DNA of 20,432 nt from a bacterium (GTDB lineage: Bacteria > Bacteroidota > Ignavibacteria > UBA10030): contig JAZDJN010000075.1 of assembly GCA_043803945.1 (NCBI GenBank), forward strand, positions 1 to 20,432. The letters are read 5' to 3'. Positions within the stretch are counted from its first letter, which is position 1. Each line of letters starts with the position of its first letter. The notes below the pieces were generated by a model. It saw only the letters and a list, made by a program, of their open reading frames with translations. It did not search any database and was not told the DNA's origin. Below are positions 1,048 through 20,432 of this stretch, piece by piece. The position numbers and the translations under genes are program-made.

Positions 1048-1095
1048 TCAAGTAGTCTGCAATGTTTATGAATTCCACATGGCATGAGCTTAATG

Positions 1096-3563: not shown

Positions 3564-3640
3564 TGAACTTCCTCTTTATGTACGTTTATCGACAAGCAAC
3601 TCGTTTTACCTGCTTCGCTGCTTTCAATGCTTTCACCATT

Positions 3641-4603: not shown

Positions 4604-4739
4604 GCTTCACCTCTTCTCCTAAAAAACTGAATTAGTCATGTACCGCACTGATATGATTCAAAACCTTATGGAGAAAGAAAAGCCGCCAAGGAACCAAAAC
4701 TCCGGGAATTAATTACGACGTGAGAGAATAAATTCCGCT

Positions 4740-5726
4740 CTATGGCTTTTCTTCAAGTACTGCACGCAACTCCGCGAGAAATTTCGGCACAGCATCAAAT
4801 GGGTCATATGGCTGACCTTTCACCGACAAGGTTTCGATCGGGATATACCCCCGATATCCCGACGCACGGATGATACTGACGAGTCTTTTAAGATCCGTTC
4901 TGATTCCGCTTTCTGCACCAAAGGGGCTTGTTTTGATCTGCCAGTTCACAGCATAGGGTGCCACCTTTGCCATATCTTCATAAGGGTCCTTCGTCGTAAA
5001 GTAACCTGTATCGACGATTGGACCGCACCAAACAGAATCAACGCGTTTGATAAGGTGAAGAAGATTCTCTGCGGTTTGAAGAAAATCGCCGTGGTTCTGT
5101 ACTCCGATAATCACGCCATAGTTTTTTCCATGCTCGGCACATACTTTCAGGTTTTCTACTATCCAGTCTTCAACCTGTTCCCGAGTACAGCCCGGAGCAA
5201 CGGTGTGCCAGCTTTGGCCTTTCATCTGAGTATCGGCAAAGACTCTGAGTACCGGTGCTCCCATTTTTGCCGCGACTTCCACCCATTGTTTAATATGCTT
5301 CACGTCGGCTGCTCGCTTTTCCTTGTCCGGCAAGGTGAAGTTATTACGGACTCCCGTGCCGCTGATGTCGAGCCCCAGCTCAAAGGCTCTGCGTTTAAAA
5401 TCATTGATGAACGAGTCGGGCGGCAGCTCCGAAGGGTATCCCGGAAAGAAATAACCGGTGGGATCAACCGCATCGAAATTATTCTTTGCACAAAAGTCGA
5501 GGAGATCGAACAATGAGATTCCTCCCCCTCTTCCTTTGTTATAATCATTCAGCAGCTTTGAGAAAGAATAGGCATTCAGGCTGAGCTTCAACTTTGAACC
5601 ACCCACACGTTGTATCTGCTGTTCAGCATGGGCCAGCGTCATACCAGCGCCAATCCCGGTTGCTGCATACAGTGACATCATCGACGTGCTTTTGATAAAA
5701 TTTCGCCTGTTGATTTTCGAATTCAT
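4740..5726 (-). CDS. Tat-exported sugar phosphate isomerase/epimerase family TIM-barrel protein (paralog B)
   Basis: Start moved from the ORF-track 5780 to ATG 5726 (MNSKINRRNFIK), which has an AGGAG SD and a twin-arginine motif; same family motifs as 3641..4603. Confidence 0.88.
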   Translation of the reverse strand: MNSKINRRNFIKSTSMMSLYAATGIGAGMTLAHAEQQIQRVGGSKLKLSLNAYSFSKLLNDYNKGRGGGISLFDLLDFCAKNNFDAVDPTGYFFPGYPSELPPDSFINDFKRRAFELGLDISGTGVRNNFTLPDKEKRAADVKHIKQWVEVAAKMGAPVLRVFADTQMKGQSWHTVAPGCTREQVEDWIVENLKVCAEHGKNYGVIIGVQNHGDFLQTAENLLHLIKRVDSVWCGPIVDTGYFTTKDPYEDMAKVAPYAVNWQIKTSPFGAESGIRTDLKRLVSIIRASGYRGYIPIETLSVKGQPYDPFDAVPKFLAELRAVLEEKP

Positions 5727-5760
5727 ACTACTTCTCCTCTCGTGTGTGGGAATTCCTAAG

Positions 5761-5782
5761 GAGTGTGCTCGTTTGCACACTC
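5761..5782. other. Intergenic stem-loop
   Basis: Perfect 8-bp inverted repeat GAGTGTGC-TCGTTT-GCACACTC; no U-tract on the coding (minus) strand. Confidence 0.5.
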
Positions 5783-5821
5783 GTCGCTTTCGATATCAAC
5801 TTCAATACCGGCCGAAATACT

Positions 5822-6544
5822 TTACTGCTTCTTTGTCGTGTCTGCCTTTTCTTTACTACTATTTTTTACGTTGGTGGCAGTCTTATCCTTGCCGCTGGTA
5901 GAAGCGGTTGCTTCTTTCCAGGCTGCAAGTTGTTCCGCGGTAAGAAGTCCTGATAAATCTGTATCGAGCTTTTCTTTGAATGGTCTTGAATTTGGTCGCC
6001 GATTAAAAGACTTGATCGATTCCTTACTCGCGGTCTCGTACTCGGTAACATACTTGATCAAGAATTGCATCGCAGATGTCATTTTTGCCTTTTCCAGTTT
6101 GAGGTCAAGCAGTGTGGCAGCATACCCATCCCAACGTGTGTTGAAGCTCCCCAGCGTTTGAGTGAGCTTTGCAATCAATTCGTCGCTGAAGTTCCCTTTC
6201 AACGCTGAAACGAATTTTTCACAATCTTTCTCAATGGCAAGCTGGGTTGCGATACGCGACTTGTCCTTGTCCTTCTCCTCTGGTAACTCCTTCAGTGATT
6301 GTTTGTGGCCTGTTCGTGCTGCGAGGTACGCTTTGGTCAGTTTTGTGGTTTGGTCTTCGGAGAGCCCCAAGAGATTTGACACACTCTGCGCCTGGAGTTT
6401 CCAAACCGTTTCAGAATTTTCTTTTACTTCTTTCTTCTTTGTTACAGTCTCGGTTTGGGCTGTACAAATAACACTCAATAGAGTGCAACAACTCATGAGG
6501 ATTATCAGACGTGTGAGCTTTTTGATGTTCATCAGTTTATTCAT
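5822..6544 (-). CDS. Secreted alpha-helical hypothetical protein with LTxxQ-like motifs (Spy/CpxP-like)
   Basis: AGGAG SD; Sec signal peptide ending CTA/Q; K/E-rich helical composition; motifs LGLSEDQ and LLTAEQLAAW; low-complexity K/T tail. Confidence 0.65.
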   Translation of the reverse strand: MNKLMNIKKLTRLIILMSCCTLLSVICTAQTETVTKKKEVKENSETVWKLQAQSVSNLLGLSEDQTTKLTKAYLAARTGHKQSLKELPEEKDKDKSRIATQLAIEKDCEKFVSALKGNFSDELIAKLTQTLGSFNTRWDGYAATLLDLKLEKAKMTSAMQFLIKYVTEYETASKESIKSFNRRPNSRPFKEKLDTDLSGLLTAEQLAAWKEATASTSGKDKTATNVKNSSKEKADTTKKQ

Positions 6545-6582
6545 TTGTGTAAACTCCTATGTAAGAGATTCGAAATAACTTG

Positions 6583-9051
6583 TTATTGGCGAGGAATCGA
6601 CAAAAGATCAATTTTTCCTTTTTGAGGAGTGTACCGTACTTCTATAAATGGCTCTTTCCCTTTCTTTGTTTTTTCGTTACTGGATAAATCAACCATTATC
6701 TTGGTCTGACCGATATCCTTGAAACGTGCATTGATTTCAATCTTGTTCGCAGCACCATGCTTGATATCGATTTCTGGTTGCTCACTTCCTTCTCCAATCG
6801 ACATTATGGCAGCGATCTTTATGCTCTGACTCTTCTCCCTGACTTTGGCACTGAAATGCCACTGCTTTGCCGGAGGCTCCTCCGTTACCATGGGGTAGCC
6901 TTCCTTCGGATCAACGGGCCAGAGATCGTCCTGATGAAAATCCATTCCTGCAGGAGTGAGCAGATTTACTTTCATGAATGCACCGTTTCGGCTGGAGATG
7001 AATGCTTGATTCTTTTGATTCAATTCGAATTGCTCCTTCCCGTGCATCAGCCAATCGACTTGCACCGACTCTGAGGCGGCAAGATCATCCACGATTAAGA
7101 CTACCGATGGACGGATCAGTACGATGTGGCGAGTGTATCGGGTAACCGGCGGTCCATAGCATTTTTGTGCCTCTCCGGCAGCATAGGCGATGTGGGGCAG
7201 CGACTTGAAAGCAGTCAATTGTCCCGTCGCGCTTTCATCTTTTTCGATTTGTCCATTTCCATTAACAAGAAGTGCATTGTGGGCGATTGTCTGAATTGTG
7301 TATTTTGTATGAAAAGGGGATCCTTGTTGTGGAAATCGTGCTCCGCTTGGCAGAGCCAAAGCTCTCCCTCCCTTCATAATTGCAAAACTGTTCTGATCTG
7401 CATGGCTGTGGCTATCCTGTCCAAATGGTGAGCACTTGAAAAGTACGAGGATATCATCGGATGGATCACTGATGTTTGTGTGCATTGCCGACCATCCAAT
7501 TCCGGAGAAAGATTTATCGAGAGCAATATTTTTCGGTATTATGGATGATATTGCATCAGCAAGGATGAGTCGATGCACAACTGCCTGACCATCGTCTGAT
7601 TTGAGTTGCTCTTTTCCAAAGAGATCTACCCACCATTGGATCACAGGATCCTTGTATCGTTGGGCATAGAAATAGAGGATGGAACAAAGTTTATCCGCGC
7701 GGTTTCCGATACCGATATGCTCCATATCTCCAAAGGGAGATATCTCTCCCCTTGGTGAGAGGCAATAAATCAGGAAGTACGGGAATTTTCTAAAGAAGGA
7801 TTTCTGCCAGAGGTCGTAGCCCGTACCAAGATAGAGGGATTGCAGCGGTGAAAGGAAACGGTCGTTATATGAGAGTGCATAATCGACGCCCTCTGCCCAG
7901 CCTCCATCGCTATCTGCCCAGTGCGGAAAAACGGTAAGCATCGCTTTCAAACCGTATTCCAACCAAGCTGCTGCCTCAGGTCGATGGGAGAGAGCAAGAG
8001 AGAATTCGAGAAGGTAGCCCGGTACACGGCCATCATGACTTTCGCCGGATGTGTTGAGAAAATCACGGCGCTGCATGCGGGCCAGCAAGAGATTTCCTCG
8101 GGCAACTAGCATTTCTTCGATTGCGTTGCGTTCTTCTTCCGAAAGAAGATCGTAGCACCAATCATACGTCTGTGGAGCTGTATGGGCGATGTTCAAACCG
8201 AGTTCATCGAACCGGGGATCTTGAACTGATGTAACACCCTCAAGCGGCCAGTCGAGTAGGTTCAATAAGTGCGCTTTGGCAGCTTCACCATATTTTTTTT
8301 CACCAGTGAGTGTATAGAGCAGCGCCATCTGCACGACATACCCGTTATAGATCCGCTGAAATTCGCGGTAGGAATCTCTGTATGCTGTGCGTAGTGTGGC
8401 GAATTGACTCCTTCCATATTTATCAAAATCTGGTTTCTTCATCAAATCGAGTTTCAATCCTTCGTCTGCAATCTTGCGCAAATCGTCGAACGCTCTCTTT
8501 CGCGTAGTGGTTAATGTTGCGCGCATCCCAGAAAGTTGAGAATTGAGGAAGAGTAATCTGGGATGTTCATTGGGAACCCTACTCAAGAGCACCTTCGGAG
8601 TTACCCAGGGCAACTCCCTTGCATGTTCAACTATTGAAAATGTTGAGGCGGGTCTCACATCTCGAACAACATTATCAGACGATAGCGCCTCTACCGTCCA
8701 TGAATATGTTCCTGCCCGCAGCGTTACTTCCGGAATGTAGACAGGATCTTCGAGGTTTCCGGAAGCATGGATCTCCTTGCCTTTGCTGTCTCTTATGCGG
8801 ACGCGGTAGACAACTTTTCCACGATCGGCCGCTCGCCACCAGCAGAAACCAGGAGGAGAGACATCAAGAATTTCACCCGGCGCCGGGCGATTAAAGTTGC
8901 CATTTTGCGGGCGGGAGTTCGGAAACTTCACCCTGATGTCATTCTGCGCCCAGACATAACTGACCATGAGAACGAGAAGAATCAAAAGAGAAGACTGCGT
9001 TTTGGGACTTGAGAGAATAGTCGGAATGATCATTCGATTTTCTAGTTTCAT
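6583..9051 (-). CDS. Secreted DUF4962 / heparinase II-III domain polysaccharide lyase (PL15-like oligo-uronate lyase)
   Basis: N-terminal beta domain, EHPRLLF, GESHDGR, GGWAEGVDY, SHSHADQNSF, AHNALLVNGNGQ and VDWLMH; signal peptide ending VWA/Q. Start placed at ATG 9051 (or 9033) rather than 9120, which would overlap the upstream gene. Confidence 0.82.
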   Translation of the reverse strand: MKLENRMIIPTILSSPKTQSSLLILLVLMVSYVWAQNDIRVKFPNSRPQNGNFNRPAPGEILDVSPPGFCWWRAADRGKVVYRVRIRDSKGKEIHASGNLEDPVYIPEVTLRAGTYSWTVEALSSDNVVRDVRPASTFSIVEHARELPWVTPKVLLSRVPNEHPRLLFLNSQLSGMRATLTTTRKRAFDDLRKIADEGLKLDLMKKPDFDKYGRSQFATLRTAYRDSYREFQRIYNGYVVQMALLYTLTGEKKYGEAAKAHLLNLLDWPLEGVTSVQDPRFDELGLNIAHTAPQTYDWCYDLLSEEERNAIEEMLVARGNLLLARMQRRDFLNTSGESHDGRVPGYLLEFSLALSHRPEAAAWLEYGLKAMLTVFPHWADSDGGWAEGVDYALSYNDRFLSPLQSLYLGTGYDLWQKSFFRKFPYFLIYCLSPRGEISPFGDMEHIGIGNRADKLCSILYFYAQRYKDPVIQWWVDLFGKEQLKSDDGQAVVHRLILADAISSIIPKNIALDKSFSGIGWSAMHTNISDPSDDILVLFKCSPFGQDSHSHADQNSFAIMKGGRALALPSGARFPQQGSPFHTKYTIQTIAHNALLVNGNGQIEKDESATGQLTAFKSLPHIAYAAGEAQKCYGPPVTRYTRHIVLIRPSVVLIVDDLAASESVQVDWLMHGKEQFELNQKNQAFISSRNGAFMKVNLLTPAGMDFHQDDLWPVDPKEGYPMVTEEPPAKQWHFSAKVREKSQSIKIAAIMSIGEGSEQPEIDIKHGAANKIEINARFKDIGQTKIMVDLSSNEKTKKGKEPFIEVRYTPQKGKIDLLSIPRQ

Positions 9052-9061
9052 TTGCTGTTCG

Positions 9062-10720
9062 TTATTTCGAATCGGATTGATCGACGATCCAGATATTGCG
9101 AAACTGAAGCGCCGTGCCATGCTCTTGAAGCATCAGGGGACCTTTCGGCGCCTCCCCAATTCTTGTGACAGCACCTTTCAATTTCACCGGTTGGAGATTT
9201 TCATAAAGCTTAATCCCATTATAGAAGACCGTTATGCGGGCGTTTTCTATTTTTGTACCACTCTCATTAAACCTTGGTGCTCGAAAGTCGATGTCGAGCG
9301 TTTGCCATTGGAAGAGCGGTGCAGCGGCATTCACAATCGGATCTTTCCGTAACGGCTCAGCGATGTTACCGGGCGCTCCACATGGGTCTCCTTTCGTCTG
9401 ACCATAGGAGTCCTTGATGTTTACTTCATAACGCGTCATCAAATAAATACCGCTATTCGTCGCTTCACCCAGCAGGCGGAATTCTGCATGGAGCTTGAAA
9501 TCACCGAATTGCCGTTTTGTGATGATCGAGCCTGCTTTGGGCACAACTTCGAGTTTGCCGCCCGGGAGGATGTTCCAATTGTTTGCCGGACCGTCTTCCG
9601 TAAGCCATTCCTTCGCTTTCTGTTTTGCCCACTCGTTCGTACTCTGTCCGTCAAAAAGAACGATGGCCTCTTTCGGTGGAACCATATTCAGTGAGGGGGA
9701 ATTGCGAATCACATGCTTCATATCAAATTTATTTCCATCCTTTTGCCCCTTGAACCGGCCATTCTCAATCGTACCAGTCCATCCATCTCCCGTGAATGCG
9801 ATACCATTTGGATTCTGTATTCCCTCGAGCACTGCCAGAGGTTTTTCAGAAGTGACCATGGTTCGCAGGAGAAGAGCACGGTATTGACCTTCTGTAACTT
9901 TTACTACTTGCGCCACCGGTCCCTCTTCATTGGAAATCCAATCTCCAATAAAAGAATCTTGCTCGTTCTCAGCTTTTGCGTCGTTGAAGCCAAGATTTTG
10001 GATCTTAATATTCTTCCAGCACACCTGCAGCGGCTGTTCACTCTTGACAGCGTGAACCTGGAGGCCGATGAAACCATTAGGAGTCATGGCATCGACGATC
10101 CCTGCGGCGAAAATCCCATTAATCCAGGTCCGAATTCCATCGCCAAGTGCTTCGATACGAAGATGATTCCACTCACCCGGTTTGAATGCATTCCGTGCGG
10201 CCTCATTGAGGGTGAGATCGCATAACCAGCCTCGCCTTGCTTCATCGTAGATTCCTCCTGTCCATCGTCGCGGCTCTGTACCGCCAGGAATGATTGCACC
10301 ATCCGTATGACGGTTCGGCGGGTTGGCTGCATAGAGCTCTTTTTGCGCCGGATCAATTTCCACCTGATATCCATGAACACGGCCATTTTTGAATTCTTTC
10401 AGGCTCTGGCTCCGGATCTGTATACCTGAGTTCAGAGCTTCATCGGCTTTGAAATCCACTTCAAGAACAAAATTGCCATAGCTTTTCTTTGTGCAAAGAA
10501 AACTATTGGGCGAGCCGGGCGTTGTTGTTCCTACGATCATACCATTCTCAACCGTATACTTCGCTGTACCATTTACGAGTTCCCATCCCGCGAGGGTTTT
10601 GCCATCGAAGAGGTTTTCCCACTGTTCCTTCTCTTGTGCAATCGAGAAATTGTAGTATTGGATCAGAATTAACAGCGTGCAAGTTATCCATGCAAGAAAA
10701 TGCCTTTTCATCTTCATCAT
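9062..10720 (-). CDS. Secreted protein with two DUF1080 (3-keto-disaccharide hydrolase family) domains
   Basis: Domain 1: LFDGKTLAGW, NSGIQIRS, GYQVEID, GEWNHLRI, GFIGLQVH. Domain 2: VLFDGQS, FGDFKLHAEF, NSGIYL, WQTLDIDF, GPLMLQEHG, FRNIWI. Signal peptide ends SIA/Q. The start may be 10720, 10717 or 10711. Confidence 0.9.
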   Translation of the reverse strand: MMKMKRHFLAWITCTLLILIQYYNFSIAQEKEQWENLFDGKTLAGWELVNGTAKYTVENGMIVGTTTPGSPNSFLCTKKSYGNFVLEVDFKADEALNSGIQIRSQSLKEFKNGRVHGYQVEIDPAQKELYAANPPNRHTDGAIIPGGTEPRRWTGGIYDEARRGWLCDLTLNEAARNAFKPGEWNHLRIEALGDGIRTWINGIFAAGIVDAMTPNGFIGLQVHAVKSEQPLQVCWKNIKIQNLGFNDAKAENEQDSFIGDWISNEEGPVAQVVKVTEGQYRALLLRTMVTSEKPLAVLEGIQNPNGIAFTGDGWTGTIENGRFKGQKDGNKFDMKHVIRNSPSLNMVPPKEAIVLFDGQSTNEWAKQKAKEWLTEDGPANNWNILPGGKLEVVPKAGSIITKRQFGDFKLHAEFRLLGEATNSGIYLMTRYEVNIKDSYGQTKGDPCGAPGNIAEPLRKDPIVNAAAPLFQWQTLDIDFRAPRFNESGTKIENARITVFYNGIKLYENLQPVKLKGAVTRIGEAPKGPLMLQEHGTALQFRNIWIVDQSDSK

Positions 10721-11916
10721 CCCTTTTGTGTTTTACGTCTGCTCGGTTTAAACTGCAATGAGTTAATTTTGCCGAATCCTCGTACTGCCGAATGTTTATC
10801 CGACTTATGGAGTATGGCGCCGCAGGATTCTCGAATGACAAGTGAAGGTTTCAGTATCCTCCGGGTCTGGACTGGTTGTCCGGTAATTGTTCTTAGGAGA
10901 ATATCGACTGCAGCTTCACCGATTTCTGCCAATGGTTGGTGGACAGTCGTGAGCGGCACTGGAGCCGTTACACCTCTTCGGATGTCATCAAATCCTACGA
11001 TGGCAATATCCTTTGGCACGCCAAGACCTTTATCGAGTACGGCTTTCTGGAATCCTAAGGCGGAGAGATCATCAAAAGCAAAAATAGCGTCCGGTCGATC
11101 TGAAGCACTGCTGAATTCAAGTCCGATCTGGTACCCTGATTGATAATCATTCCACTCTCCGCGCAACTGAAATCTGTATTCATACTTTGGAGAATATTCC
11201 ATCTTATGGTGATGCAATGCGCGTAGAAAACCTTTTTTTCTCAGGTCGCCCAGCAAACTTCCCCTCTCACCGCTCACACCGTTGATATATCCGATTTTCT
11301 TATAGCCAAGAGAAATAAGATGTTCAGTCGCAATGAATGCTCCTTCTTCATGATCAGTGCCAACATAGGTAATATCTTCATCGGCGATGTACGAGACGAC
11401 GACATAGGGAAAGTGTTCACGATGGAGTTGCCTGATAATCGGCGATGCAATGTACTCTCGCGACATCGAGGCGATAATCAATCCACTGACGCCGATCTCG
11501 AGAAAATGTTGAATCATGGTATCTTCTTTATCGTCTCGCCCAGCAGTGCTTGATAAGAGGAGGTTGTATCGTTCTTCAGAAAGGGTCTTTTCTACACTCG
11601 ACAGGATACGTGAGAAGAATGGACTTTCGAGATCTCTCAGGACAAAACCGATCGTTTTCAGTTTGGAGAAATCGACTCGGTTCGTACTCTTTGTAATGTA
11701 GGTCCCCTTTCCTGCTCTCGCATAAACCACTCCTTCTCGAATAAGTTCACTTATTGCTTTTTTTATTGTAATAAGGCTGACGGAGTATTGTTTCGCCAGT
11801 TCGCTTTGCGTCGCTAATTGGTCACCCGCTTTCAACGCGCCAGAAACTATCTTTGCTTTGATATCATTTGCCACCTGAACGTATAATGGTGCAGAAACAT
11901 TCATATCAATTGCCAT
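10717..11916 (-). CDS. GntR-family transcriptional regulator with LacI-type sugar-binding domain (AraR-like architecture)
   Basis: GntR wHTH (PLYVQVANDIKAKI..GDQLATQSELAKQYSVSLITIKKAI..GKGTYI) plus LacI/PBP domain (PDAIFAFDD, VPKDIAIVGFDD, LTTVHQP, LVIRESCG). Start set at ATG 11916 with a GAGGT SD; the ORF-track start 11976 is the TTG inside the -35 box. Confidence 0.92.
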   Translation of the reverse strand: MAIDMNVSAPLYVQVANDIKAKIVSGALKAGDQLATQSELAKQYSVSLITIKKAISELIREGVVYARAGKGTYITKSTNRVDFSKLKTIGFVLRDLESPFFSRILSSVEKTLSEERYNLLLSSTAGRDDKEDTMIQHFLEIGVSGLIIASMSREYIASPIIRQLHREHFPYVVVSYIADEDITYVGTDHEEGAFIATEHLISLGYKKIGYINGVSGERGSLLGDLRKKGFLRALHHHKMEYSPKYEYRFQLRGEWNDYQSGYQIGLEFSSASDRPDAIFAFDDLSALGFQKAVLDKGLGVPKDIAIVGFDDIRRGVTAPVPLTTVHQPLAEIGEAAVDILLRTITGQPVQTRRILKPSLVIRESCGAILHKSDKHSAVRGFGKINSLQFKPSRRKTQKG

Positions 11917-11936
11917 TCTTACCTCTATAGAATGAT

Positions 11937-11948
11937 TAGGTATACCAA
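11937..11948. promoter_or_regulatory. Operator 1 (TAGGTATACCAA), putative binding site of the GntR regulator
   Basis: 11/12 match to the palindrome at 12044-12055; covers the predicted start site of the leftward promoter. Confidence 0.75.
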
Positions 11949-11976
11949 TTATATTATTTAGAAAAGACTTTGTCAA
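11948..11976 (-). promoter_or_regulatory. Sigma70-type promoter for the leftward operon
   Basis: Perfect consensus on the minus strand: TTGACA (11976-11971), 17-nt spacer, TATAAT (11953-11948). Confidence 0.88.
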
Positions 11977-12009
11977 GTTAATAAATCAAGGTAAACTTGA
12001 TAAAATAGC

Positions 12010-12039
12010 TTGACAAAGAATATATATTATTACTACATT
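12010..12039 (+). promoter_or_regulatory. Sigma70-type promoter for the rightward (TBDR) operon
   Basis: TTGACA (12010-12015), 18-nt AT-rich spacer, TACATT (12034-12039). Confidence 0.7.
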
Positions 12040-12043
12040 CACA

Positions 12044-12055
12044 TTGGTATACCAA
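12044..12055. promoter_or_regulatory. Operator 2 (TTGGTATACCAA), putative binding site of the GntR regulator
   Basis: Perfect 12-bp palindrome just downstream of the -10 box; resembles GntR-family TGGT..ACCA operators. Confidence 0.78.
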
Positions 12056-12268
12056 ATACATTAAGAGAAGATGCTGGATGCATTTCGCATCTTCCCATCT
12101 CATTGAAGAGTTAGGAGTCATGGAGGATCCGAAGCCGCCATAGCATTGTCCAGTGCAAGCGGCTTGCTGTCGTGTATTTCAATCTGGCTACTCTTGACGT
12201 TGTTTTCCTGTATCAACGATTAAGCTGAACCATTCCTTATAGCTGAAGAGAATTATTCAGAGGGTACT

Positions 12269-15247
12269 ATGCCTCGATTTTTCTGCACCATCACTCTTGT
12301 GTTTCTTATTCTTCTATTTTTTATTCCCCCTGGGTCGCTGAATGCTGCTGAAACTGGAAAAATCTCTGGAAGAGTAATCGACAAGAATTCTCGCGAACCC
12401 ATAATCGGTGCCAATGTTTTTGTGGATGTTGTCTGGATGAATGAACGAGAAGTGAAACTTCCCACCATTCAAGGAGCTTCAACAGACACTGAAGGCCGCT
12501 TCGTTATTCTTGCTCTCCGACCCGGTGAATACAACCTGAAATGCAGCGTTATCGGCTATGGTAAAAAGGAAGTCACTAAAGTCAAAGTGAATATTGACAA
12601 GACGACAGAAGTGAATTTTGAATTGACATCGATGAGTCTCCAGATTGAGGAAGTGGTAGTGACAGCCTTCAAACCAAACGAGGTTGAGAAAGATCTCACA
12701 GCCACCAAACAAACCTATGACATCTCCGACGTCGAGAAAATCGCCGGAGTGACAACGATCTCAGATGTTATAGCACTCCAGGCTGATGTTGTTGATAACC
12801 ATTTCAGAGGAGGGAGAGAAGGAGAATCAATGTATCTCATCGGTGGAGGAAGTATCAACAATCCACTCGATGCAAGTAAATCATTCGAGCCGATGGTGAG
12901 CGCACTCCAAACGGTGGAGGTGCTCACAAGCGGTTTCAGCGCTGAGTTCGGTAACGCACAATCTGGTGTTATCAATATGGTACCGAAAGAAGGAGGTGAT
13001 CGATGGACCGTGCGCACCGACTTCTCGATTGATCTCCCTCATTCTCGGTTATGGGGCGGGAATCCATATTCCATCGAGAACATGTCTTTTTATAAGTTAT
13101 TATCGACTCCAGAAGAATGGATTAGATCATATTACGAGTATGGAAATACAACCCCAAGGTCACTCATTGAAAAAGATTGGAGAACCTATATCGTCCCAAA
13201 CGACAGCTCCTCACGGAACTATTCCAGATTGAATTCTAAAGACAAGCTTCTCTTCATGCGCATGGATAGCCTGCGAGCTGCCAGGTTTGCGTTGGTCAGT
13301 TGGCTGCAATCTGCAAGAGATCTGATGCTGGAAGAGAGCGGAATTCCCCAGCATCGGTTGAATCTCACGCTGGGCGGTCCAATTTCTGAGAGCATGAGGC
13401 TCTTCATCTCAGTGGAGCAAGAGAAGAAAAATGCTAGTGTCCCCGAGCCGAATCCCGATCTTAACCGACAACTGATGAGCAATTTAACGATTCAATGGAC
13501 GAAGGAAGATAAACTCACCCTTTCATACTTCTATAGTTATTCTTTTAAGAATGGCATTGGTGGCCCTTCCGACTGGTTTGACCGGATTCTGCAAGATCCA
13601 AAAACCATCAAAACCAGCCAGCAGATCGGAATTCGGTGGATGCATCACCTCAATCAATTCAGCTTTGCAGACATCGCAGTCCGAATGCTCAACACAAGAA
13701 GCGAGGTTCGACCAGAGTTCCTCGATCCTGGCCGGTTCATCGATGTTAATGCATTCAACGGTGGAAAAGTATCGGGCCTCTCTTACATTGATGAATGGTT
13801 TAACTCTCCCACCTGGAGTGTGAACACCGTCAATGGCAATCGAGGTGTTGAACGAACAACAACATATTCATTTGACGGCAGCTACACTCTTCAGGCAACA
13901 TCTGAGAACCTGTTGAAAAGCGGGATCCAGTTTCAATCGTATGTACTCGACCTCGATAAATTGTACGGGATGAACGATCTGAGCGACTTTTCTTATTCAA
14001 ACTGGAAGGTGACTCCGTACGAGGGTGCGCTCTATATCCAGGATAAAATGGAATTCCAGGGACTCATCGCCAACGTAGGTTTGCGATTTGACTACTACAA
14101 CATCAACTATGATTACTACACCAACATCTTCGATCCTTTGAAGAATCCTGCTGATACCACTACCGGAGCTCTCCCTGATCCATCAAAAGCTCCGAAGGCG
14201 AGGACAAAACCTTTCGGCAGACTCCAACCACGATTCGGAATATCCTTTCCCGTCTCTGAATACACGGTGTTCCATCTCAACTATGGAACATTTGTGCAAC
14301 GACCTCCATTCAATTATGTCATCGGCGGGCAGTACAAAGAAACAAACGGCGGACTCACCGTTGTGAAAATTGGAAATGCTCAACTCCGCCCTGAGAAAAC
14401 TTCAGCCTGGGATGTTGGGATTGTGCACTCGCTACTCGGAGGACTCCGCATCGATTTAAGCGCCTATTATAAAGATGTCAACGATCTGATCGAACAAGCA
14501 GACTATATTGACCTGAATACAGGTATAGGGTACACCAATTATTCGAACAAGGACTATGCTGCAATCAAAGGATTCAATGTCAATCTTGAACAGAGAAAAG
14601 GATTGCTCAATTTTCGTTTGCGGTACAACTACCAAATTGCGAAGGGTAAAGCCAGCGGGCCTGGAGGTTCTCCCATAACAATTTTCAGAACACGCGGAGG
14701 AAATGATTCACTCGCGCTCTCAAAATCCGTCGGCACAAGGGATATTCTTCTTGACTACGACAGAACGCACAGGCTGCTTGCTAATCTCACGGTAGTCACG
14801 ACAAATGATGACAGTCCTGAGATTTTCGGCTTTAAACCATTTGCGAATTCTTCCGTCAGCCTCACGTTCACATTTCAATCGGGCCGTCCTTACAGTGATT
14901 TCTCGTCGGGTGATCTTACAACAAACAATGTGCGGATGCCGGATCTCTATGATTTTAAGATACGACTGCAGAAATCATTCAAACTTGGAAGTTACAGATA
15001 TACTGCTTACGTCGAGGGATTTAATATCCTGAATCAGAGAGAATGGTCGTATAGCGACATATTCAAAGATAAATATAATACGTTACGCCGATGGAATGAT
15101 GGAGAAAGAGAGAGCCTCATCTGGTATGATCCAAAATATGAACAAAAACCAAACGTACTCGATGAGCGTTATCTCTACAGCAATGCCTACTCCGTTTATG
15201 AAAATCAACCGAGGTATGTTCGTCTCGGAATCTGGATCGAATTGTAA
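12269..15247 (+). CDS. TonB-dependent outer membrane receptor with N-terminal carboxypeptidase-regulatory-like domain
   Basis: Signal peptide; GKISGRVID..EPIIGANV N-domain; TonB-box-like EEVVVTA; plug motifs HFRGGR and SGFSAEFGNAQSGVINMVPKEG; barrel motifs YIQDKME, NVGLRFDY, QPRFGISFP, GNAQLRPEKT and SAYYKDV; C-terminal PRYVRLGIWIEL. Confidence 0.93.
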   Translation: MPRFFCTITLVFLILLFFIPPGSLNAAETGKISGRVIDKNSREPIIGANVFVDVVWMNEREVKLPTIQGASTDTEGRFVILALRPGEYNLKCSVIGYGKKEVTKVKVNIDKTTEVNFELTSMSLQIEEVVVTAFKPNEVEKDLTATKQTYDISDVEKIAGVTTISDVIALQADVVDNHFRGGREGESMYLIGGGSINNPLDASKSFEPMVSALQTVEVLTSGFSAEFGNAQSGVINMVPKEGGDRWTVRTDFSIDLPHSRLWGGNPYSIENMSFYKLLSTPEEWIRSYYEYGNTTPRSLIEKDWRTYIVPNDSSSRNYSRLNSKDKLLFMRMDSLRAARFALVSWLQSARDLMLEESGIPQHRLNLTLGGPISESMRLFISVEQEKKNASVPEPNPDLNRQLMSNLTIQWTKEDKLTLSYFYSYSFKNGIGGPSDWFDRILQDPKTIKTSQQIGIRWMHHLNQFSFADIAVRMLNTRSEVRPEFLDPGRFIDVNAFNGGKVSGLSYIDEWFNSPTWSVNTVNGNRGVERTTTYSFDGSYTLQATSENLLKSGIQFQSYVLDLDKLYGMNDLSDFSYSNWKVTPYEGALYIQDKMEFQGLIANVGLRFDYYNINYDYYTNIFDPLKNPADTTTGALPDPSKAPKARTKPFGRLQPRFGISFPVSEYTVFHLNYGTFVQRPPFNYVIGGQYKETNGGLTVVKIGNAQLRPEKTSAWDVGIVHSLLGGLRIDLSAYYKDVNDLIEQADYIDLNTGIGYTNYSNKDYAAIKGFNVNLEQRKGLLNFRLRYNYQIAKGKASGPGGSPITIFRTRGGNDSLALSKSVGTRDILLDYDRTHRLLANLTVVTTNDDSPEIFGFKPFANSSVSLTFTFQSGRPYSDFSSGDLTTNNVRMPDLYDFKIRLQKSFKLGSYRYTAYVEGFNILNQREWSYSDIFKDKYNTLRRWNDGERESLIWYDPKYEQKPNVLDERYLYSNAYSVYENQPRYVRLGIWIEL

Positions 15248-15283
15248 ATCATTCTTGCTTTCAGCGGTTCAGAGGCAAAAAGT

Positions 15284-17623
15284 ATGAATCAGAGGTTCGT
15301 AATGAAACTAAAGCTGCAAAGGATGATCCGATTATTCTTAGTGCTTGTTCTTGCTCCATGCTTCTCTGCCGTGACACAGACTTCGTTTGTCGAGACACGG
15401 TGGGAAGTGCACAACCGCGGCATGCTCCATGAAACTGTATACAACACAGGGGAGATCTGCCAGCCCTTCCAAACCGGTAAATTGACTGCTGAGAAAGTCC
15501 TGAATCCTATGATGGAGTGGCCTCCCTATTTCAGGACGGTCATCGACAATAAACAATATGTCGGCCAAAATAATGGATGGGCAGGTGGTATCTACATCTC
15601 AGCGAATTATAAGGGATCAACCGGTACGCGACCTGACCTGACGAAGAACCGCCTCGTTGCACTTTGTGGAGGTGTGGGAGGTTCGAATGCCGAACAATGC
15701 TACGGCGTCTGGAGTTTTCCGATCTCGATACAAAAAATGCAGAACTTTCCCGTGCTCGAAGATGGTTCACTGAATTCAGCATTTAATCCTAACGAAGCAG
15801 AAGAGAAAATCATCGCTCAGTGGAACACCAGTGCCGGTATCTCGGTCAAAAGAACTTCACGTGCCTTCAGTTATCCTGATTATGACGACTTCATCATTTA
15901 TGAATATGAATTCGAAAACAATGGAATCTTTGTTGACGAAACAACAAACCGGCTCGTGAAAAAAGATACGACACTTGTTGATGTAACAATAACATTCACC
16001 TATGCCATATCGCCATCAATGTTTGGATACACAAGATACAATAACGATCCCCTCTGGAGTCCCCATCAACGAGGGCAGTGGACCATGAGCTTCTGGGATC
16101 CCGATTATTATTTGTTATACAACCAGACATCGGGTGGAATCGATTCTTCCTCCATTTCTGGATGGCCTGAGCAGAATGCACAGAACTTCCTGGATTGGTC
16201 TCGAACAGGAAATCATGGCGGGGGAATATTAAGTCCACAAGCTGCAGGATTCAGCGTACTCTATTATGATACCGAACATCTATCCTATGTCGATTCACTC
16301 AACGGCCCGAATAATCAATCGCCACAATATGCTTTGATCCGCAATGACCTTAAGTCGACACTCAAAGGCATGGACCTTGATCCAACTGGAAAAGTCAGAC
16401 AGCCGTATCAATTATTTAATAGTAATGCGGGTATGGCAAGCTCGAAGATCTTTCAAAACGTCATCGATTTTGCAAAAAGGCCCAGCATATTCTATGCTGG
16501 AGGAATACTCCTGCCTCCGATTTGGCAAGGCCGTAATATACCGATTAACAAAGACGATCCCTTTAGTGCCAACTTCCCTGTAAAAACCATCACCTTCGGT
16601 CCGTACTATTTGAAACAAGGCGATAAAATCAATTTCACGACGGCTGAAATCGTCGGCTATGGTGCTGATACCAGCAAGGCGGTGCTGGGTGGATTCTATA
16701 GCAGTTCAGACCCATGGCATCCTGGCCGATTTTGGAACAGACCGGTTGTTATCAAAGGACAAAAAGTCACGGATAATTATGTTCGTGATTTTGGTCTGCC
16801 CGACTATGTGAACTCAAAAACTGTGTTTATCAATGATGTTGCACATAAAGCGTTTGAAGCGTATTTGGGTCGTGTACTTCCAAAGCCGCGTGACAATGCA
16901 AATTGGGATAAAAATAATCCCCCCAACTGGCCTGAGAAAAATCCTTCACACGGTCTTTATAAAGTCCCCATTCCGATCCCTGCTCCTAAAATCCTGACAT
17001 GGAACACAGACACAAACGCTGTGGTAATCAAGTGGAATCGGAACGTGGAGAGTTTCGAAAATATGTACTCCACATACGCTTCTGGAAAACTTGCGAAGTT
17101 CAATATCTACAGGGCGGATTTTAAATCCGGCCCCTGGACGTTGTTAGCCTCAATTCCACGCGGCAATGTAACCAATACCGGTGAATATTTGTATGGAGAT
17201 AACGAAAGGTCATTTCTTATCGGTGAATCGAAGTACTACGCTGTTACTTCAGTCGATAACCTCGGCAATGAGAGCGGCAAGACAAATATCGTTCTCCATG
17301 AGAAGCTTATTGGTCCTGCATCAAAACTGGGGAACATCTATGTCGTCCCGAACCCATACAATGCTTCCCTTGGATCCGGCTTTACTGGTGAAGGAGCATC
17401 GACCCGTCTCGGAATCTACGGTCTGCCGGCAAAGTGTACCATCAACTTTTATTCGTTTGCAGGCCAGCGGCTCTGGACCATCGAACACGATCAACAATCG
17501 AATTCTCATAACTTCGAACTGATCACACGAAATGTCCAGGAGATTGCCTCAGGTCTGTATTTCTTTGTTGTCCAGACGCCCGAAGGAGAAAAATTCATGG
17601 GTAAGTTTATCGTGGTCAAATGA
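15284..17623 (+). CDS. Secreted hypothetical protein with FN3-like domain and T9SS type-A-like C-terminal sorting domain
   Basis: Sec signal without lipobox (alternative start 15302). FN3-like segment VVIKWN..FNIYRA..YYAVTSVDNLGNESG. CTD-like tail IYVVPNPY..CTINFYSFAGQ..IASGLYFFVV..GKFIVVK. Confidence 0.8.
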   Translation: MNQRFVMKLKLQRMIRLFLVLVLAPCFSAVTQTSFVETRWEVHNRGMLHETVYNTGEICQPFQTGKLTAEKVLNPMMEWPPYFRTVIDNKQYVGQNNGWAGGIYISANYKGSTGTRPDLTKNRLVALCGGVGGSNAEQCYGVWSFPISIQKMQNFPVLEDGSLNSAFNPNEAEEKIIAQWNTSAGISVKRTSRAFSYPDYDDFIIYEYEFENNGIFVDETTNRLVKKDTTLVDVTITFTYAISPSMFGYTRYNNDPLWSPHQRGQWTMSFWDPDYYLLYNQTSGGIDSSSISGWPEQNAQNFLDWSRTGNHGGGILSPQAAGFSVLYYDTEHLSYVDSLNGPNNQSPQYALIRNDLKSTLKGMDLDPTGKVRQPYQLFNSNAGMASSKIFQNVIDFAKRPSIFYAGGILLPPIWQGRNIPINKDDPFSANFPVKTITFGPYYLKQGDKINFTTAEIVGYGADTSKAVLGGFYSSSDPWHPGRFWNRPVVIKGQKVTDNYVRDFGLPDYVNSKTVFINDVAHKAFEAYLGRVLPKPRDNANWDKNNPPNWPEKNPSHGLYKVPIPIPAPKILTWNTDTNAVVIKWNRNVESFENMYSTYASGKLAKFNIYRADFKSGPWTLLASIPRGNVTNTGEYLYGDNERSFLIGESKYYAVTSVDNLGNESGKTNIVLHEKLIGPASKLGNIYVVPNPYNASLGSGFTGEGASTRLGIYGLPAKCTINFYSFAGQRLWTIEHDQQSNSHNFELITRNVQEIASGLYFFVVQTPEGEKFMGKFIVVK

Positions 17624-17657
17624 GACAGCATTCTAAGAGATTGTATGAGGTCTACTC

Positions 17658-18632
17658 ATGAAACATAATGTCGTTCTCTATTCTTTCACGCTTTTCCTGG
17701 CTGCTCTCTCCCAGCTTTTGGCCGGTGAGAAAGTAGGAACAACCTCTTTTCAATTCTTAAAGATGCCGCTGGATGCGAGGTCTGCAGCGATGGGAGGTGC
17801 TGCCATATCCTCCGTCAATACTTCGGAAGCACTCTTCTGGAATCCAGCAGGATTGAGAAGGACAACCGGGCTCGATGTTTCTACCTCCTATGTCGATTAT
17901 TTTTTAGATGTCAATATGTTTTCGGGCGCCATCTCAATGCCGCTCGGTCAATCCAGTGCTGTAGGCCTCTTTGCCGTTGTTGTCGATTATGGTTCCATTG
18001 ATGTAACAGATGCCGATCACCTCTTTTTCAATGCAGATTGGACCTATAATCCCGGACTGACAGGAGAAAAGATAAATCCTCGTGCAAGCGTCTTCGGAAT
18101 TTCTTATGCTCTCTCGGTAACCGATAAGCTCACATTTGGAGTCTCTGCCAAGTACCAACGGGAAGACCTCATCATGGCAAAGGGATCCACCGTTGCATTT
18201 GATGGCGGGTTGACCTTTGATACGGGATGGCGGACGCTTCGCTTCGGAGCTGCAATTAGAAATTTTGGCCCGGATGTGACATTCATTAAAGAATCATATC
18301 CATTGCCCGAGACCTTTACTGTCGGCATTTCGGGGTATCTCTTTTCATCCAATGAGTCACTCTTCATGAAGTCGAGCTCACAAAGTCTTCTACTTTCCTA
18401 TGACTTGAGCCATCCACGAGATTATGACCAGCAACATCATTTCGGTGTTGAGTACACTGTCATGGATTTTCTCTCCCTTCGTGGAGGCTATAAGCTGAAT
18501 TTCGATGAAGAGGGAGTCACCTATGGCATCGGAGTGAAATTCAACAATTTCAGATTGGATTATGCTTATGATCACTTCGGTACTGTTTTACCTTCAGTGC
18601 ACCGCATCTCTATCGGTTATGCGCTGAATTAA
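17658..18632 (+). CDS. PorV/PorQ family (UPF0164-like) outer membrane beta-barrel protein
   Basis: GAGG SD; signal peptide; KVGTTSFQFLK..DARSAAMGGA..ALFWNPAGL; amphipathic strands; C-terminal LDYAY..HRISIGY; 324 aa. Confidence 0.85.
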   Translation: MKHNVVLYSFTLFLAALSQLLAGEKVGTTSFQFLKMPLDARSAAMGGAAISSVNTSEALFWNPAGLRRTTGLDVSTSYVDYFLDVNMFSGAISMPLGQSSAVGLFAVVVDYGSIDVTDADHLFFNADWTYNPGLTGEKINPRASVFGISYALSVTDKLTFGVSAKYQREDLIMAKGSTVAFDGGLTFDTGWRTLRFGAAIRNFGPDVTFIKESYPLPETFTVGISGYLFSSNESLFMKSSSQSLLLSYDLSHPRDYDQQHHFGVEYTVMDFLSLRGGYKLNFDEEGVTYGIGVKFNNFRLDYAYDHFGTVLPSVHRISIGYALN

Positions 18633-18651
18633 ACTCGAGGGAATTACCGTT

Positions 18652-20220
18652 ATGCTCGCAATCTCACAGACACAATTAAGATGCACCATGATCTTTCTAT
18701 TGATTATCGCTTCCTTCATGATTTCTGGAACACTGATAGCGCAGCATAATGGAGATCCCCTTCTTTTCCAGGGATTAACCGAGAGGAATCAAGTCGGTGT
18801 GAAAGGATCAGCATACGGTAATGCATTTACTTCACGCTCAAATGATTTAAACGCCCTGTTCTCCAATGCTGCCGGACTGGCCGATTTGCAGTCCATTCAA
18901 ATTTCTGTTTCTACTCACTATAGAGACTTCTTGACGAGAGACAACCAGAACTTTTATCCGGGGAGCGGGTATGTCGGTACATCATTGTATCTGGAACATC
19001 TGCTCATTCCGGATCCCGCATGGAACAACATCTGGGACGATTCTTTGAGAACGATTGTCTATGATTCCCTGGGCACGCCTATCGGAACGAATTGGTGGAA
19101 CGCCGATAAACTCCAGTGGCCGGTTCAGGGTGTCGATGATTACAGCAAAGAGGCCACCGACCATGAACAGACATTCAACAGGGTGGCATTTGATCATATC
19201 GCCATAGCAGTTCCTTTTAAATTTGAAGGAAAGCACTTCGTCGTAGCAGCTTCGTACAATCGGCAATACGATGTCTACGACTACGACTGGAATGGCTCCT
19301 ACCTGGATCCGCATTGGGGTTCGTCGGATATTATTCAGGCTGCCCCGGGATCTATCGTTCGCAGTAACTGGTCTGTTTTTTCACGCCGCCGTACAGGAGG
19401 GCTCTATGCGTTTACTGGAGCCTTGGCCTTCCAGTATGATGACCATCTATTACTTGGAACAAAGTTGAATTGGGTTTCGGGAAAATCAACGGACGAACAA
19501 ACACTCGACAGAATAGGCTACTTTCGCTTCAAGCATGGCGAGAACCAATCGAGATGGTCTTTCTCCTATGAGACCAATGGCCAACAGATCAATGGTACTT
19601 CTGAGTATCGTACATCAGAACTCTCTCTCGGTGCGCTCTATACATCGAGCACTCTGAACCTTGGACTTAACATTCAGCTTCTCTCTACAATTACAAGAAC
19701 ATGGTCCTATTCGACACAACTCATAGACTCCTCTAATGTTACCACTTCGATAATATCTGGCATCGACAAAGTGCATATGCCTGCAATCTATACGGCAGGA
19801 ATTACCATTAAGCCAAACCAGGGTCTGATCGTATCGTTTGCCTATGAATATAATGCACTCAGTACAGCGAAGTATGAATTGAGCCGCGGCACTCCAGATT
19901 CCCTCCCATACTATGCACGATGGGTGGATCAAATCTCTTTACGCGCAGGTATTGAATACTCCATTTCCAGCACGGTAACAATCCTCGGAGGATATCAAAC
20001 TCGAGGGGCTCCATTCATCGGCTATGGTGTGGCAATCAGAGATGCCGGTGCACCGATGGAGAGTTATTCATGTGGTATAAGTTTATCCATTGTGTATGGC
20101 CGATTTGATGTGGCGTACATTGTTAACCGATTGAAGTACTATGATGTGTATATGACCAATAGAAATTTCACCCTGGAGCAATCACAGCGTCTTTCTTTAG
20201 GCTATACAATGAGTTTGTGA
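18652..20220 (+). CDS. Outer membrane beta-barrel protein, FadL/OmpP1/PorV-like superfamily
   Basis: Signal peptide ending LIA/Q; hatch-like motif GVKGSAYGNAFTSRSNDLNALFSNAAGLA; many alternating beta-strands (LRAGIEY, FDVAY, LSLGYTMSL). Confidence 0.7.
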   Translation: MLAISQTQLRCTMIFLLIIASFMISGTLIAQHNGDPLLFQGLTERNQVGVKGSAYGNAFTSRSNDLNALFSNAAGLADLQSIQISVSTHYRDFLTRDNQNFYPGSGYVGTSLYLEHLLIPDPAWNNIWDDSLRTIVYDSLGTPIGTNWWNADKLQWPVQGVDDYSKEATDHEQTFNRVAFDHIAIAVPFKFEGKHFVVAASYNRQYDVYDYDWNGSYLDPHWGSSDIIQAAPGSIVRSNWSVFSRRRTGGLYAFTGALAFQYDDHLLLGTKLNWVSGKSTDEQTLDRIGYFRFKHGENQSRWSFSYETNGQQINGTSEYRTSELSLGALYTSSTLNLGLNIQLLSTITRTWSYSTQLIDSSNVTTSIISGIDKVHMPAIYTAGITIKPNQGLIVSFAYEYNALSTAKYELSRGTPDSLPYYARWVDQISLRAGIEYSISSTVTILGGYQTRGAPFIGYGVAIRDAGAPMESYSCGISLSIVYGRFDVAYIVNRLKYYDVYMTNRNFTLEQSQRLSLGYTMSL

Positions 20221-20280
20221 TATCGTATATTCCAATGGTTTGGTATTCTTTTTTATTCTAGAAACTTGGACGAAAAGTCC

Positions 20281-20417: not shown

Positions 20418-20432
20418 TGATTATGTTCTTAA

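Follow-up and report, generated by a model that had tools for sequence, protein, structure and literature searches.

How are polysaccharides taken up without SusD? Glycan capture in Bacteroidia is explained by SusC/SusD. For SusD-free polysaccharide uptake in Ignavibacteria, Calditrichia, KSB1, and Marinimicrobia, which are abundant environmental relatives, the locus described here is a concrete candidate. It lies in a stretch of 20,432 nucleotides (nt; hereafter, the window), positions 1 to 20,432 of contig JAZDJN010000075.1 of assembly GCA_043803945.1, from a bacterium of the class Ignavibacteria (lineage UBA10030). The locus comprises four plus-strand genes, for a TonB-dependent receptor (gene 1), a partner protein (gene 2), an outer-membrane barrel of the PorV/PorQ family (gene 3), and a FadL/BamG-like barrel (gene 4). 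The four open reading frames (ORFs) are separated by 36, 34, and 19 nt, and their coordinates match the earlier placement; the co-oriented string with gaps of 19-36 nt reported in a first-pass annotation of this DNA is borne out by them. No terminator-like site was seen on the plus strand within the four genes.

We lean towards reading the four genes as a single operon that encodes a module for nutrient capture and import at the outer membrane, a functional counterpart of SusC/SusD. In composition, the cassette is best filed under known kinds of parts, namely a TonB-dependent receptor and a type IX secretion system (T9SS) substrate with a cognate PorV-family anchor. It looks like a widespread counterpart of the SusC/SusD of gut Bacteroides. 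The coupling of a C-terminal domain (CTD) protein and its barrel to a TonB-dependent receptor, as a repeated and regulated uptake unit in SusD's place, appears to be new. No description of a cassette of receptor, CTD protein, and PorV-like barrel was found in the open full-text literature (subscription journals and supplements lay outside this scope), and the available parts of the Caldithrix genome paper (PMC5317091) and of a T9SS review (PMC11205867) contain none.

Recurrence and conservation of the cassette

In the window's genome (5.54 Mb in 118 contigs, scored 100% complete), 18 genes score above the PorV/PorQ-family cut-off, and 14 of these belong to loci that also encode a partner and a receptor of one subfamily. 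This subfamily has 15 members at E ≤ 1.6e-32, all in the 14 cassettes, and the next receptor of the genome follows at 4.9e-14. The partners, one per locus, are 633-1264 amino acids (aa) long. The gene order is receptor-partner-barrel in 13 of the 14 loci; the exception, C87:29-39 kb, has the partner on the upstream side of the same string of genes. The other four PorV/PorQ-family genes encode PorV (308.1 bits, beside PorU), PorQ (242.6 bits), a PorV2-like protein, and one barrel on contig C34. At C34:48489-51903 (L126, L018), a 521-aa BNR/F510_1955-type glycosylhydrolase-like CTD protein is followed by two PorV/PorQ-family barrels, without a TonB receptor. Private barrels beside their cargo are hence not confined to the receptor cassettes.

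In other genomes (one per species), 201 stretches encode a relative of the partner, and synteny was read from the best 80 of these 201 loci. As labelled, these 80 loci belong to Ignavibacteriales/Ignavibacteriaceae, Melioribacteraceae, Calditrichia, KSB1, Marinimicrobia/Neomarinimicrobiota, and Fidelibacterota, some of the bins probably being mislabelled; the closest relatives among them are from Ignavibacteriales/Ignavibacteriaceae, at 59% identity. Relatives in Ignavibacteria- and KSB1-like genomes, which the first-pass annotation had mentioned, are among them. Counting the loci with enough flank, the receptor lies directly upstream of the partner in 65 of 66, a PorV-like barrel directly downstream of it in 69 of 70, and a gene-4 homologue after the barrel in 58 of 59. 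The exceptions are loci L090 and L095. These counts and the 14 paralogous loci support conservation of the triad. Such an arrangement is far from what chance would give, with 14 occurrences in the genome and one in nearly all loci examined elsewhere.

The partners resemble each other in tail and body. A profile of about 90 residues was built from 13 partner tails, one partner being kept outside the training set. All 14 partners, the untrained one included, scored at least 75.7 bits with it, against a maximum of 42.4 bits among 131 other C-termini that matched (E ≤ 10). Among these 131, a PorU2-like tail ranks first and the tail of PorU fourth. Judged by profile score, the tails of all 14 cassette partners are a distinct CTD subclass. 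A tail-free profile of the body of the window's partner (P0002) was compared with the 11 partners that do not belong to its three-member group; 9 matched at E ≤ 1.4e-3, as collinear segments. Body-to-body matches in pairs added C59, leaving only C61 unlinked. Since the bodies are related even without their tails, the partner is better described as one divergent family, as SusD is, than as arbitrary cargo.

The three components also share a history. Across the 14 loci, distance matrices correlate between receptor and barrel (r = 0.59, p = 1e-4), receptor and tail (r = 0.48, p = 1e-4), and tail and barrel (r = 0.29, p = 0.02), in agreement with the co-phylogeny that had been expected of the three genes. 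In the barrel tree, the groups {C75, C81, C56} and {C70, C106, C38} have supports of 92/90 and 93/96, respectively. The correlated distances and the recurrent sub-groups show that whole cassettes were duplicated as units.

The partner protein, the receptor, and the barrels

The AlphaFold2 (AF2) model of the partner is mainly beta (mean predicted local distance difference test score [pLDDT] 84.4, predicted template-modelling score 0.85). Residues ~35-617 match galactose-mutarotase-like supersandwich domains in VIA-align, with 200-285 residues aligned and Z from 18.5 to ~10. Ranking highest are the non-catalytic N-terminal domains of dextran dextrinase, GH15 glucoamylase, GH94, GH65, and GH116 proteins, and no catalytic (alpha/alpha)6 domain follows the supersandwich in the model. 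Foldseek, run on the whole model, found matches in the fibronectin type III (FN3) and CTD part alone; the fold of the body comes from the wide VIA-align search. The signal peptides of the partner family are of the ordinary Sec type and end in A-Q. A lipobox-like motif occurs in 1 of the 39 family members, and the column of Cys26 of P0002 holds C in 2 of 39. Neither P0002 nor any of the 39 members has a SusD match in Pfam. A SusD-like lipoprotein was ruled out as the identity of the partner, given the missing lipobox and a supersandwich in place of the helical tetratricopeptide repeat (TPR) fold. As stated in the first-pass annotation, the receptor is not followed by a SusD; the fold of the 779-aa protein also differs from that of SusD. 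Neither the partner nor its family members matched an enzyme family in Pfam or NCBIfam, and the family has many invariant charged residues.

The only family match of the partner itself lies in its tail and is sub-threshold (TIGR04183, 18.3 bits against 23; PF18962, 16.3 bits against 27). Within the 39-member family, the NCBIfam models match as follows: type A (TIGR04183) in 34 (E ≤ 0.01), PorZ in 29, PorU in 17, and type B (TIGR04131) in one. With Pfam, CHU_C (PF13585, type B) matches 28 of 39 at E ≤ 0.01 (best 1.3e-7) and Por_Secre_tail matches 8 of 39. The tail is therefore ambiguous by sequence between the type A, type B, PorZ, and PorU models. The T9SS CTD assigned earlier is atypical: it scores under the type-A cut-offs and is PorZ/PorU-like. 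In structure, residues 678-779 align with the PorZ CTD (5m11) at Z 10.9, with a root-mean-square deviation of 2.8 Å over 87 residues and 25% identity (VIA-align). Family models and predicted fold together indicate a resemblance to the tails that stay uncleaved, those of PorZ and PorU.

Homologues of the partner are numerous. The collection clustered at 90% contains 316 at E ≤ 1e-5. Among the matches listed (120 of 316), they are 720-815 aa long with query coverage of at least 95%, are named "hypothetical" or "T9SS type A sorting domain-containing protein", and come mostly from Calditrichia, Melioribacteraceae, KSB1, and Neomarinimicrobiota bins. The partner profile found 113 proteins at E ≤ 1e-30 and 2000 at E ≤ 1e-10 in a library of 1.84 billion representatives.

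The receptor has an N-terminal CarboxypepD_reg domain (PF13620/PF13715, E 2.5e-16), a plug region, and a 22-strand-type barrel (PF00593, 72.6 bits, cut-off 27). The plug region was matched by NCBIfam receptor models at residues 204-264; Pfam Plug is not among the matches of the receptor (P0001) but is among those of a paralogue. The SusC/RagA model TIGR04056 matched only residues 31-158, at 70.5 bits against a cut-off of 368.25. With an N-terminal match alone and a score below the NCBIfam cut-off, SusC was rejected as its identity.

Gene 3 matches the PorV/PorQ family model NF033709 at 182.7 bits (cut-off 90) over positions 1-325 of 326, and all 35 of its orthologues match PorV_fam. Weak matches to the PorP/SprF model occur in 13 of the 35. 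The first-pass annotation called this barrel PorV-like and a PorV paralogue, but it is not specifically PorV: it is below both equivalog cut-offs (PorQ NF033711, 99.9 of 220 bits; PorV NF033710, 67.2 of 250 bits), and the gene-3 product (P0003) is ~25% identical to the genome's own PorQ and to its PorV alike.

A complex was modelled from the mature barrel (residues 23-324; 35 orthologues) and the partner tail (residues 676-779; 39 orthologues). Its score was 0.90, 0.91, and 0.91 in three runs, and the best of three controls scored 0.02. In calibration, 116 of 157 solved complexes attained this score mark, as did 2 of 215 mismatched pairs. Contacts agreed between the runs to at least 87%, with a partner pLDDT of at least 76. 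The predicted interface contains 10 of the 13 invariant tail residues, including the PNP motif and the final G-K...K. On the barrel side, the enrichment is weak: of the 33 invariant residues, 9 are in the interface, which comprises 51 of the 302 residues. The interface between partner CTD and gene-3 barrel that had been foreseen is thus predicted (0.91 against 0.02), and the model supports tail-barrel binding, short of showing it.

Gene 4 has the FadL fold with long extracellular strands (AF2 model, pLDDT 84.6). In Foldseek, it matched the Pseudomonas aeruginosa FadL homologue 3dwo at E 8.3e-16, and FadL, TodX, and BamG chains at probability 1.00 with a TM-score (TMt) of 0.6-0.72; the BamG chains 9hiv_F, 9n2d_B, and 9hjm_F, from three Bacteroidota BAM structures, gave 0.70-0.72. 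Its sequence matches, to BamG and to the PorV family, are weak. A KdgM/AlgE-type porin was considered and rejected: FadL is the best fold match, and AlgE gave E ~1e-4 and a TM-score of ~0.25. Gene-4 homologues are found in only 3 of the 14 cassettes of the genome, the window's own and those on C81 and C56. At C24:29578-31018 (L119), the FadL-like fourth gene is replaced, after a paralogous cassette, by two tandem genes for 239-aa proteins with barrel-like C-termini and without a Pfam family.

Proposed surface anchoring and competing explanations

A mechanism can be proposed from these parts. After Sec export, the partner would leave the cell through the T9SS and keep its C-terminal tail. The uncleaved CTD would dock on the private PorV/PorQ-family barrel, as PorZ does on PorQ and PorU on PorV, and would keep the supersandwich body, which is of a sugar-binding type, on the outside of the cell next to the TonB-dependent receptor. 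The body may capture an acidic uronate polysaccharide, or oligosaccharides cut from it by T9SS-secreted lyases, and hand them to the receptor for TonB-driven import; lyases with ordinary tails would be secreted alongside. The FadL/BamG-like fourth barrel may be a further stable subunit or a scaffold of the uronate subtype, and a GntR/LacI-type repressor would govern both divergent promoters via GGTATACC operators. In this scheme, the gene order, the families, the predicted folds, the 14-fold paralogy, the cross-phylum conservation, the carbohydrate-active enzyme (CAZyme) context, and the operator placement are shown by the analysis; what we infer is how the partner is secreted, that it retains its CTD and touches the receptor, which substrate is taken up, and what gene 4 does.

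The anchoring in this scheme has precedents. According to the available parts of one review (PMC10202324), PorQ is bound by PorZ through a CTD that is not removed, PorU stays attached to PorV, and cognate PorV-like barrels are suggested to shield CTDs from cleavage. Type-B cargo binds its own PorP/SprF barrel, which is needed for both secretion and surface anchorage, as described in parts of PMC9143113 and PMC12618676. A secretion adaptor acting as a permanent anchor, put forward in the first-pass annotation, is therefore no new principle; PorZ-PorQ, PorU-PorV, and SprB-SprF precede it, as far as these sources extend. A further parallel is BamG. The portion of PMC12611786 used describes it as a barrel of the FadL family that holds the surface protein BamH on BAM; its extracellular strands are extended, and it is conserved in the Fibrobacterota-Chlorobiota-Bacteroidota (FCB) phyla.

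The cassette shares features with each of these systems and is identical to none. As in SusC/SusD (RagA/RagB) utilisomes, a receptor is co-encoded with a surface partner, the unit is multiplied in the genome (14 loci), CAZymes are neighbours, and a regulator is encoded locally; the receptor has the same N-terminal CarboxypepD_reg domain as SusC. The partner differs from SusD in lacking a lipid anchor and in its fold, a beta supersandwich where SusD is a helical TPR protein. In addition, the receptor fails the SusC model, and one or two extra barrels are obligatory. In PorZ-PorQ and PorU-PorV of Porphyromonas gingivalis, a T9SS substrate keeps its CTD on a PorV-family barrel (the available part of PMC10202324), and the cassette likewise pairs a PorZ-like tail with a PorV/PorQ-family barrel. 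Those pairs, however, are secretion machinery with one copy per cell type, whereas 14 private pairs are found here, each tied to a nutrient receptor. With type-B cargo and PorP/SprF (SprB-SprF and PG1035-PorP, on the portions of the sources used), the cassette shares the side-by-side encoding of cargo and own barrel; CHU_C matches 28 of the 39 partner-family members, and the PorP/SprF model weakly matches 13 of the 35 barrels. Distinct from that class, the NCBIfam type-B model matches almost none of the partners, the barrel scores far higher as a PorV/PorQ-family member, and the pair is linked to a receptor, which the known type-B examples, being adhesins, are not. Gene 4 resembles BamG in its extended extracellular strands and TMt; it differs in being ~100 residues longer, in falling far below the BamG cut-off, and in lying in a nutrient locus rather than with bamA.

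The same evidence was weighed for three other roles of the partner and the barrels. The private barrel might only escort the partner from the SprA translocon, after which PorU would process it and the partner would be released or linked to lipopolysaccharide, so that no standing complex would form. PorV is known to ferry type-A cargo, PorP/SprF barrels have been described as specialised shuttles (parts of PMC12618676 and PMC10202324), PorU is present in the genome, and the type-A tail model matches 34 of the 39 family members. We nevertheless consider a pure shuttle unlikely: the partner tail is a separate subclass confined to cassettes and is like the uncleaved PorZ/PorU tails, and a barrel of its own for each partner, retained across phyla and over 14 duplications, would be costly if its role were transient. 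It is quite unlikely that the partner is an enzyme, that is, a surface glycanase or lyase beside the receptor instead of a binding lid. Aldose epimerases (Z 11-12), a GH174 endo-fucanase (Z 12.8), and a PL26 lyase (Z 12.1) are among its fold matches, and the many invariant charged residues would suit a catalyst; but the top matches are the non-catalytic N-terminal domains of GH15/GH94/GH65/GH116 proteins with no catalytic domain after them, no Pfam or NCBIfam enzyme family is matched, and separate lyases with generic CTDs are encoded alongside in related loci.

That one or both barrels are BamG-like helpers, which insert or assemble receptor and partner and stay outside the working complex, seems very unlikely. 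Gene 4 does match BamG structures as well as it matches FadL, and BamG itself is a FadL-family anchor of BamH on BAM that is conserved in FCB phyla (PMC12611786, in part). However, the BamG equivalog model NF053685 gives gene 4 only 36.1 bits of the 250 required, the gene is confined to 3 of the 14 cassettes, and the PorV-like barrel is predicted to bind the tail. Surface anchoring of the partner beside the receptor thus continues to be the interpretation we favour.

Several results weigh against this interpretation. Unrelated proteins served as controls for the complex model, with neither a generic CTD nor the general PorV among them, so the score is silent on cognate specificity. Since CTD-PorV-type complexes have been solved, the pass of the model may come from likeness to them. 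Tail and barrel show no co-variation beyond their shared cassette history (partial Mantel r = 0.005, p = 0.48). In the tree of the genome's 19 PorV-family barrels, 12 of the 16 inner branches are open, and the cassette barrels are thus not shown as a clade apart from PorQ. The mutarotases, the GH174 fucanase, and the PL26 lyase among the fold matches mean that the body could still be catalytic. Some paralogous cassettes adjoin peptidases or a nucleotidase, not CAZymes. Finally, the PorK, PorL, PorM, and PorN models gave nothing over cut-off in the window's genome, and the GldM model had no match in either of two nearly closed genomes of the window's family and order.

The last point concerns the secretion route. 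SprA (746.6 bits in a 2285-aa frame) and PorU (1001.5 bits) are over their cut-offs in the genome, as are PorV and PorQ, and CTD proteins are many. The T9SS assumed in the first-pass annotation is thus present in its sprA and porU parts, to which PorV and PorQ can be added; its porK-N part found no match over cut-off. GldL, GldM (two models), and GldN had no match in the genome, and GldK had only sub-cut-off matches of the formylglycine-generating enzyme (FGE) type. The GldM model was positive in three of three genomes of another family of the phylum. Either the motor and ring proteins of this lineage have diverged too far for the models, or export has another driver; the secretion account has its main gap here. 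The GldK-like matches examined on C98 were rejected as false; they adjoin Avd and reverse-transcriptase genes. That region (C98:44790-63161, L128) is a diversity-generating-retroelement-like locus with Avd (103.4 bits, cut-off 80) and a reverse transcriptase, and contains several proteins with FGE-sulfatase-type C-terminal domains, some of them with caspase domains. A second, PorU2-like sortase-type protein of 1796 aa (364.3 of 450 bits) is encoded at C91:110791-116184 and a PorV2-like barrel (233.1 of 325 bits) at C95:104983-106035; together they may be a second attachment module.

The distribution of SusD was compared with that of the barrels. No SusD match over cut-off was found in the window's genome. 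The genome has one true SusC (496.5 bits, on another contig), which is followed by a 584-aa frame with a weak SusD match (20.5 of 23.1 bits). A phylum sample of 151 genomes was scored, with at most about 13-14 candidates per genome and with PorV-family counts only as a proxy for cassettes. In the window's class (36 genomes), at least nine PorV-family members occur in 29 of 36, and SusD (PF07980, E ≤ 1e-5) in 9 of 36, with 1-2 copies each. In families f15, f20, and f30 (23 genomes), PorV-family members number 2-6 each, and SusD occurs in 22 of 23, with matches up to the ceiling of about 13-14. Families f17 and f27 have both in moderate numbers. The mutual exclusion with SusD that had been put forward is therefore reduced to an inverse trend. 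Strict exclusion was ruled out by these two families and by the SusC/weak SusD pair of the window's genome.

More tentatively, a T9SS-built "utilisome" may be the standard glycan-capture device of the non-Bacteroidia FCB lineages. Its non-lipidated supersandwich would be a hinged lid or loader, permanently held by an uncleaved PorZ-like tail on a private PorQ-like barrel, with the FadL/BamG-like barrel bracing the polyuronate subtype; SusD would be the alternative that largely replaced it in Bacteroidia. This fuller proposal is possible rather than probable. If it is true, the FadL-superfamily barrels (PorV, PorQ, PorP, BamG, and the cassette barrels) would be a general surface-protein anchoring system of the superphylum. 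The cassette would allow carbon use to be predicted in these phyla in the style of polysaccharide utilisation loci (PULs) and would widen the role of the T9SS from secretion to the building of uptake machines.

Control region, catabolic arm, and suggested substrate

Table 1. Coordinates of the cassette, its predicted domains, and the divergent arm in the window.
Feature	Position (nt)	Strand	Basis
Catabolic arm	211..10720	-	Family matches of window proteins
GntR-HTH (helix-turn-helix) + LacI-type sugar-binding-domain regulator	10717..11916	-	PF00392 4e-16, Peripla_BP_3 1.6e-31
Divergent control region	11917..12268	.	Two promoter-like sites + two GGTATACC palindromes
Promoter-like site TTGACA-17-TATAAT	11976..11948	-	12/12 hexamer matches
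Promoter-like site TTGACA-18-TACATT	12010..12039	+	10/12 hexamer matches
TonB-dependent receptor (gene 1, 992 aa)	12269..15247	+	PF00593
Partner protein (gene 2, 779 aa)	15284..17623	+	AF2 model, homologues
Partner, predicted beta-supersandwich body (residues ~35-561)	15386-16966	+	AF2 model
Partner, predicted FN3 domain (residues 562-675)	16967-17308	+	AF2 model
Partner, predicted C-terminal T9SS-type domain (residues 676-779)	17309-17620	+	AF2 model
PorV/PorQ-family outer-membrane barrel (gene 3, 324 aa)	17658..18632	+	NF033709
FadL/BamG-like 14-strand-type barrel (gene 4, 522 aa)	18652..20220	+	AF2 model, Foldseek

The palindrome GGTATACC has exactly two copies in the window (11939-11946 and 12046-12053), both located between the divergently oriented genes; two or more copies arose in 0 of 100 shuffles. 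Each strand has one promoter-like site (Table 1), with one GGTATACC copy 1-6 nt downstream of its -10 hexamer. An operator common to the receptor arm and the catabolic arm, as proposed in the first-pass annotation, is thus found. Its position is a repressor-type placement for the GntR/LacI-type regulator encoded next to it, and this regulator, given its domain matches, is likely the repressor of both GGTATACC operators. For the regulator, the longest ORF begins at TTG 11976, in the -35 hexamer of the same-strand promoter TTGACA-17-TATAAT, a perfect match; a start at ATG 11916 is more likely. No Rfam family at gathering score was found in the window, the ~215-nt leader included.

The catabolic arm encodes a heparinase II/III-like lyase (DUF4962 + Hepar_II_III_C), a two-domain 3-keto-disaccharide hydrolase, a GFO/IDH/MocA oxidoreductase, and a major facilitator superfamily sugar transporter. 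It also encodes three xylose-isomerase-like TIM barrels and one more at 211-1047 (four in total). A 240-aa protein of this arm (5822-6544) has no family match. In this arm, the heparinase II/III-like lyase is thus found together with a gene set characteristic of glycoside breakdown by the oxidative (3-keto) route. At the nearest related locus (L034), the same regulator type and the same hydrolase lie upstream.

The gene context was compared in 19 orthologous loci of other genomes, where 76 flanking proteins were scanned. Polysaccharide-lyase families (Chondroitinase_B/PL6-type, Alginate_lyase, and Heparinase II/III) occur in 10 of the 19 loci and a GntR-type regulator upstream in 7. Beta-helix/DUF5123 proteins, short-chain dehydrogenases/reductases (SDR), and PfkB kinases are recurrent neighbours. 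Within the window's own genome, the two closest paralogous cassettes adjoin a PL6-type gene (C81) and GH28 and GH88 genes (C56). These PL6, GH28, GH88, and lyase neighbours tie the gene-4 subtype to acidic uronate polysaccharides of the alginate or pectate kind, and the neighbouring genes suggest uronate polysaccharides of the alginate type as its substrate.

CAZymes lie beside at least 6 of the 13 paralogous loci of the genome. Other paralogous cassettes adjoin GH29/GH97/alginate-lyase genes, GH94 with beta-1,2-glucanase-type genes, NamZ, deacetylase genes, or genes for peptidases and a nucleotidase. On gene content, the cassette system as a whole is PUL-like, yet its substrates are not glycans alone.

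The contig stops 212 nt past gene 4 (window 20221-20432). In 17 of the 19 orthologous loci, a protein with a generic type-A T9SS tail is encoded directly after the gene-4 homologue; hence, the operon of the window may run past the end of the assembly. In related loci (L034-L105), this generic-tail gene is often followed by one for a PL6-type or large beta-helix/DUF5123 protein.

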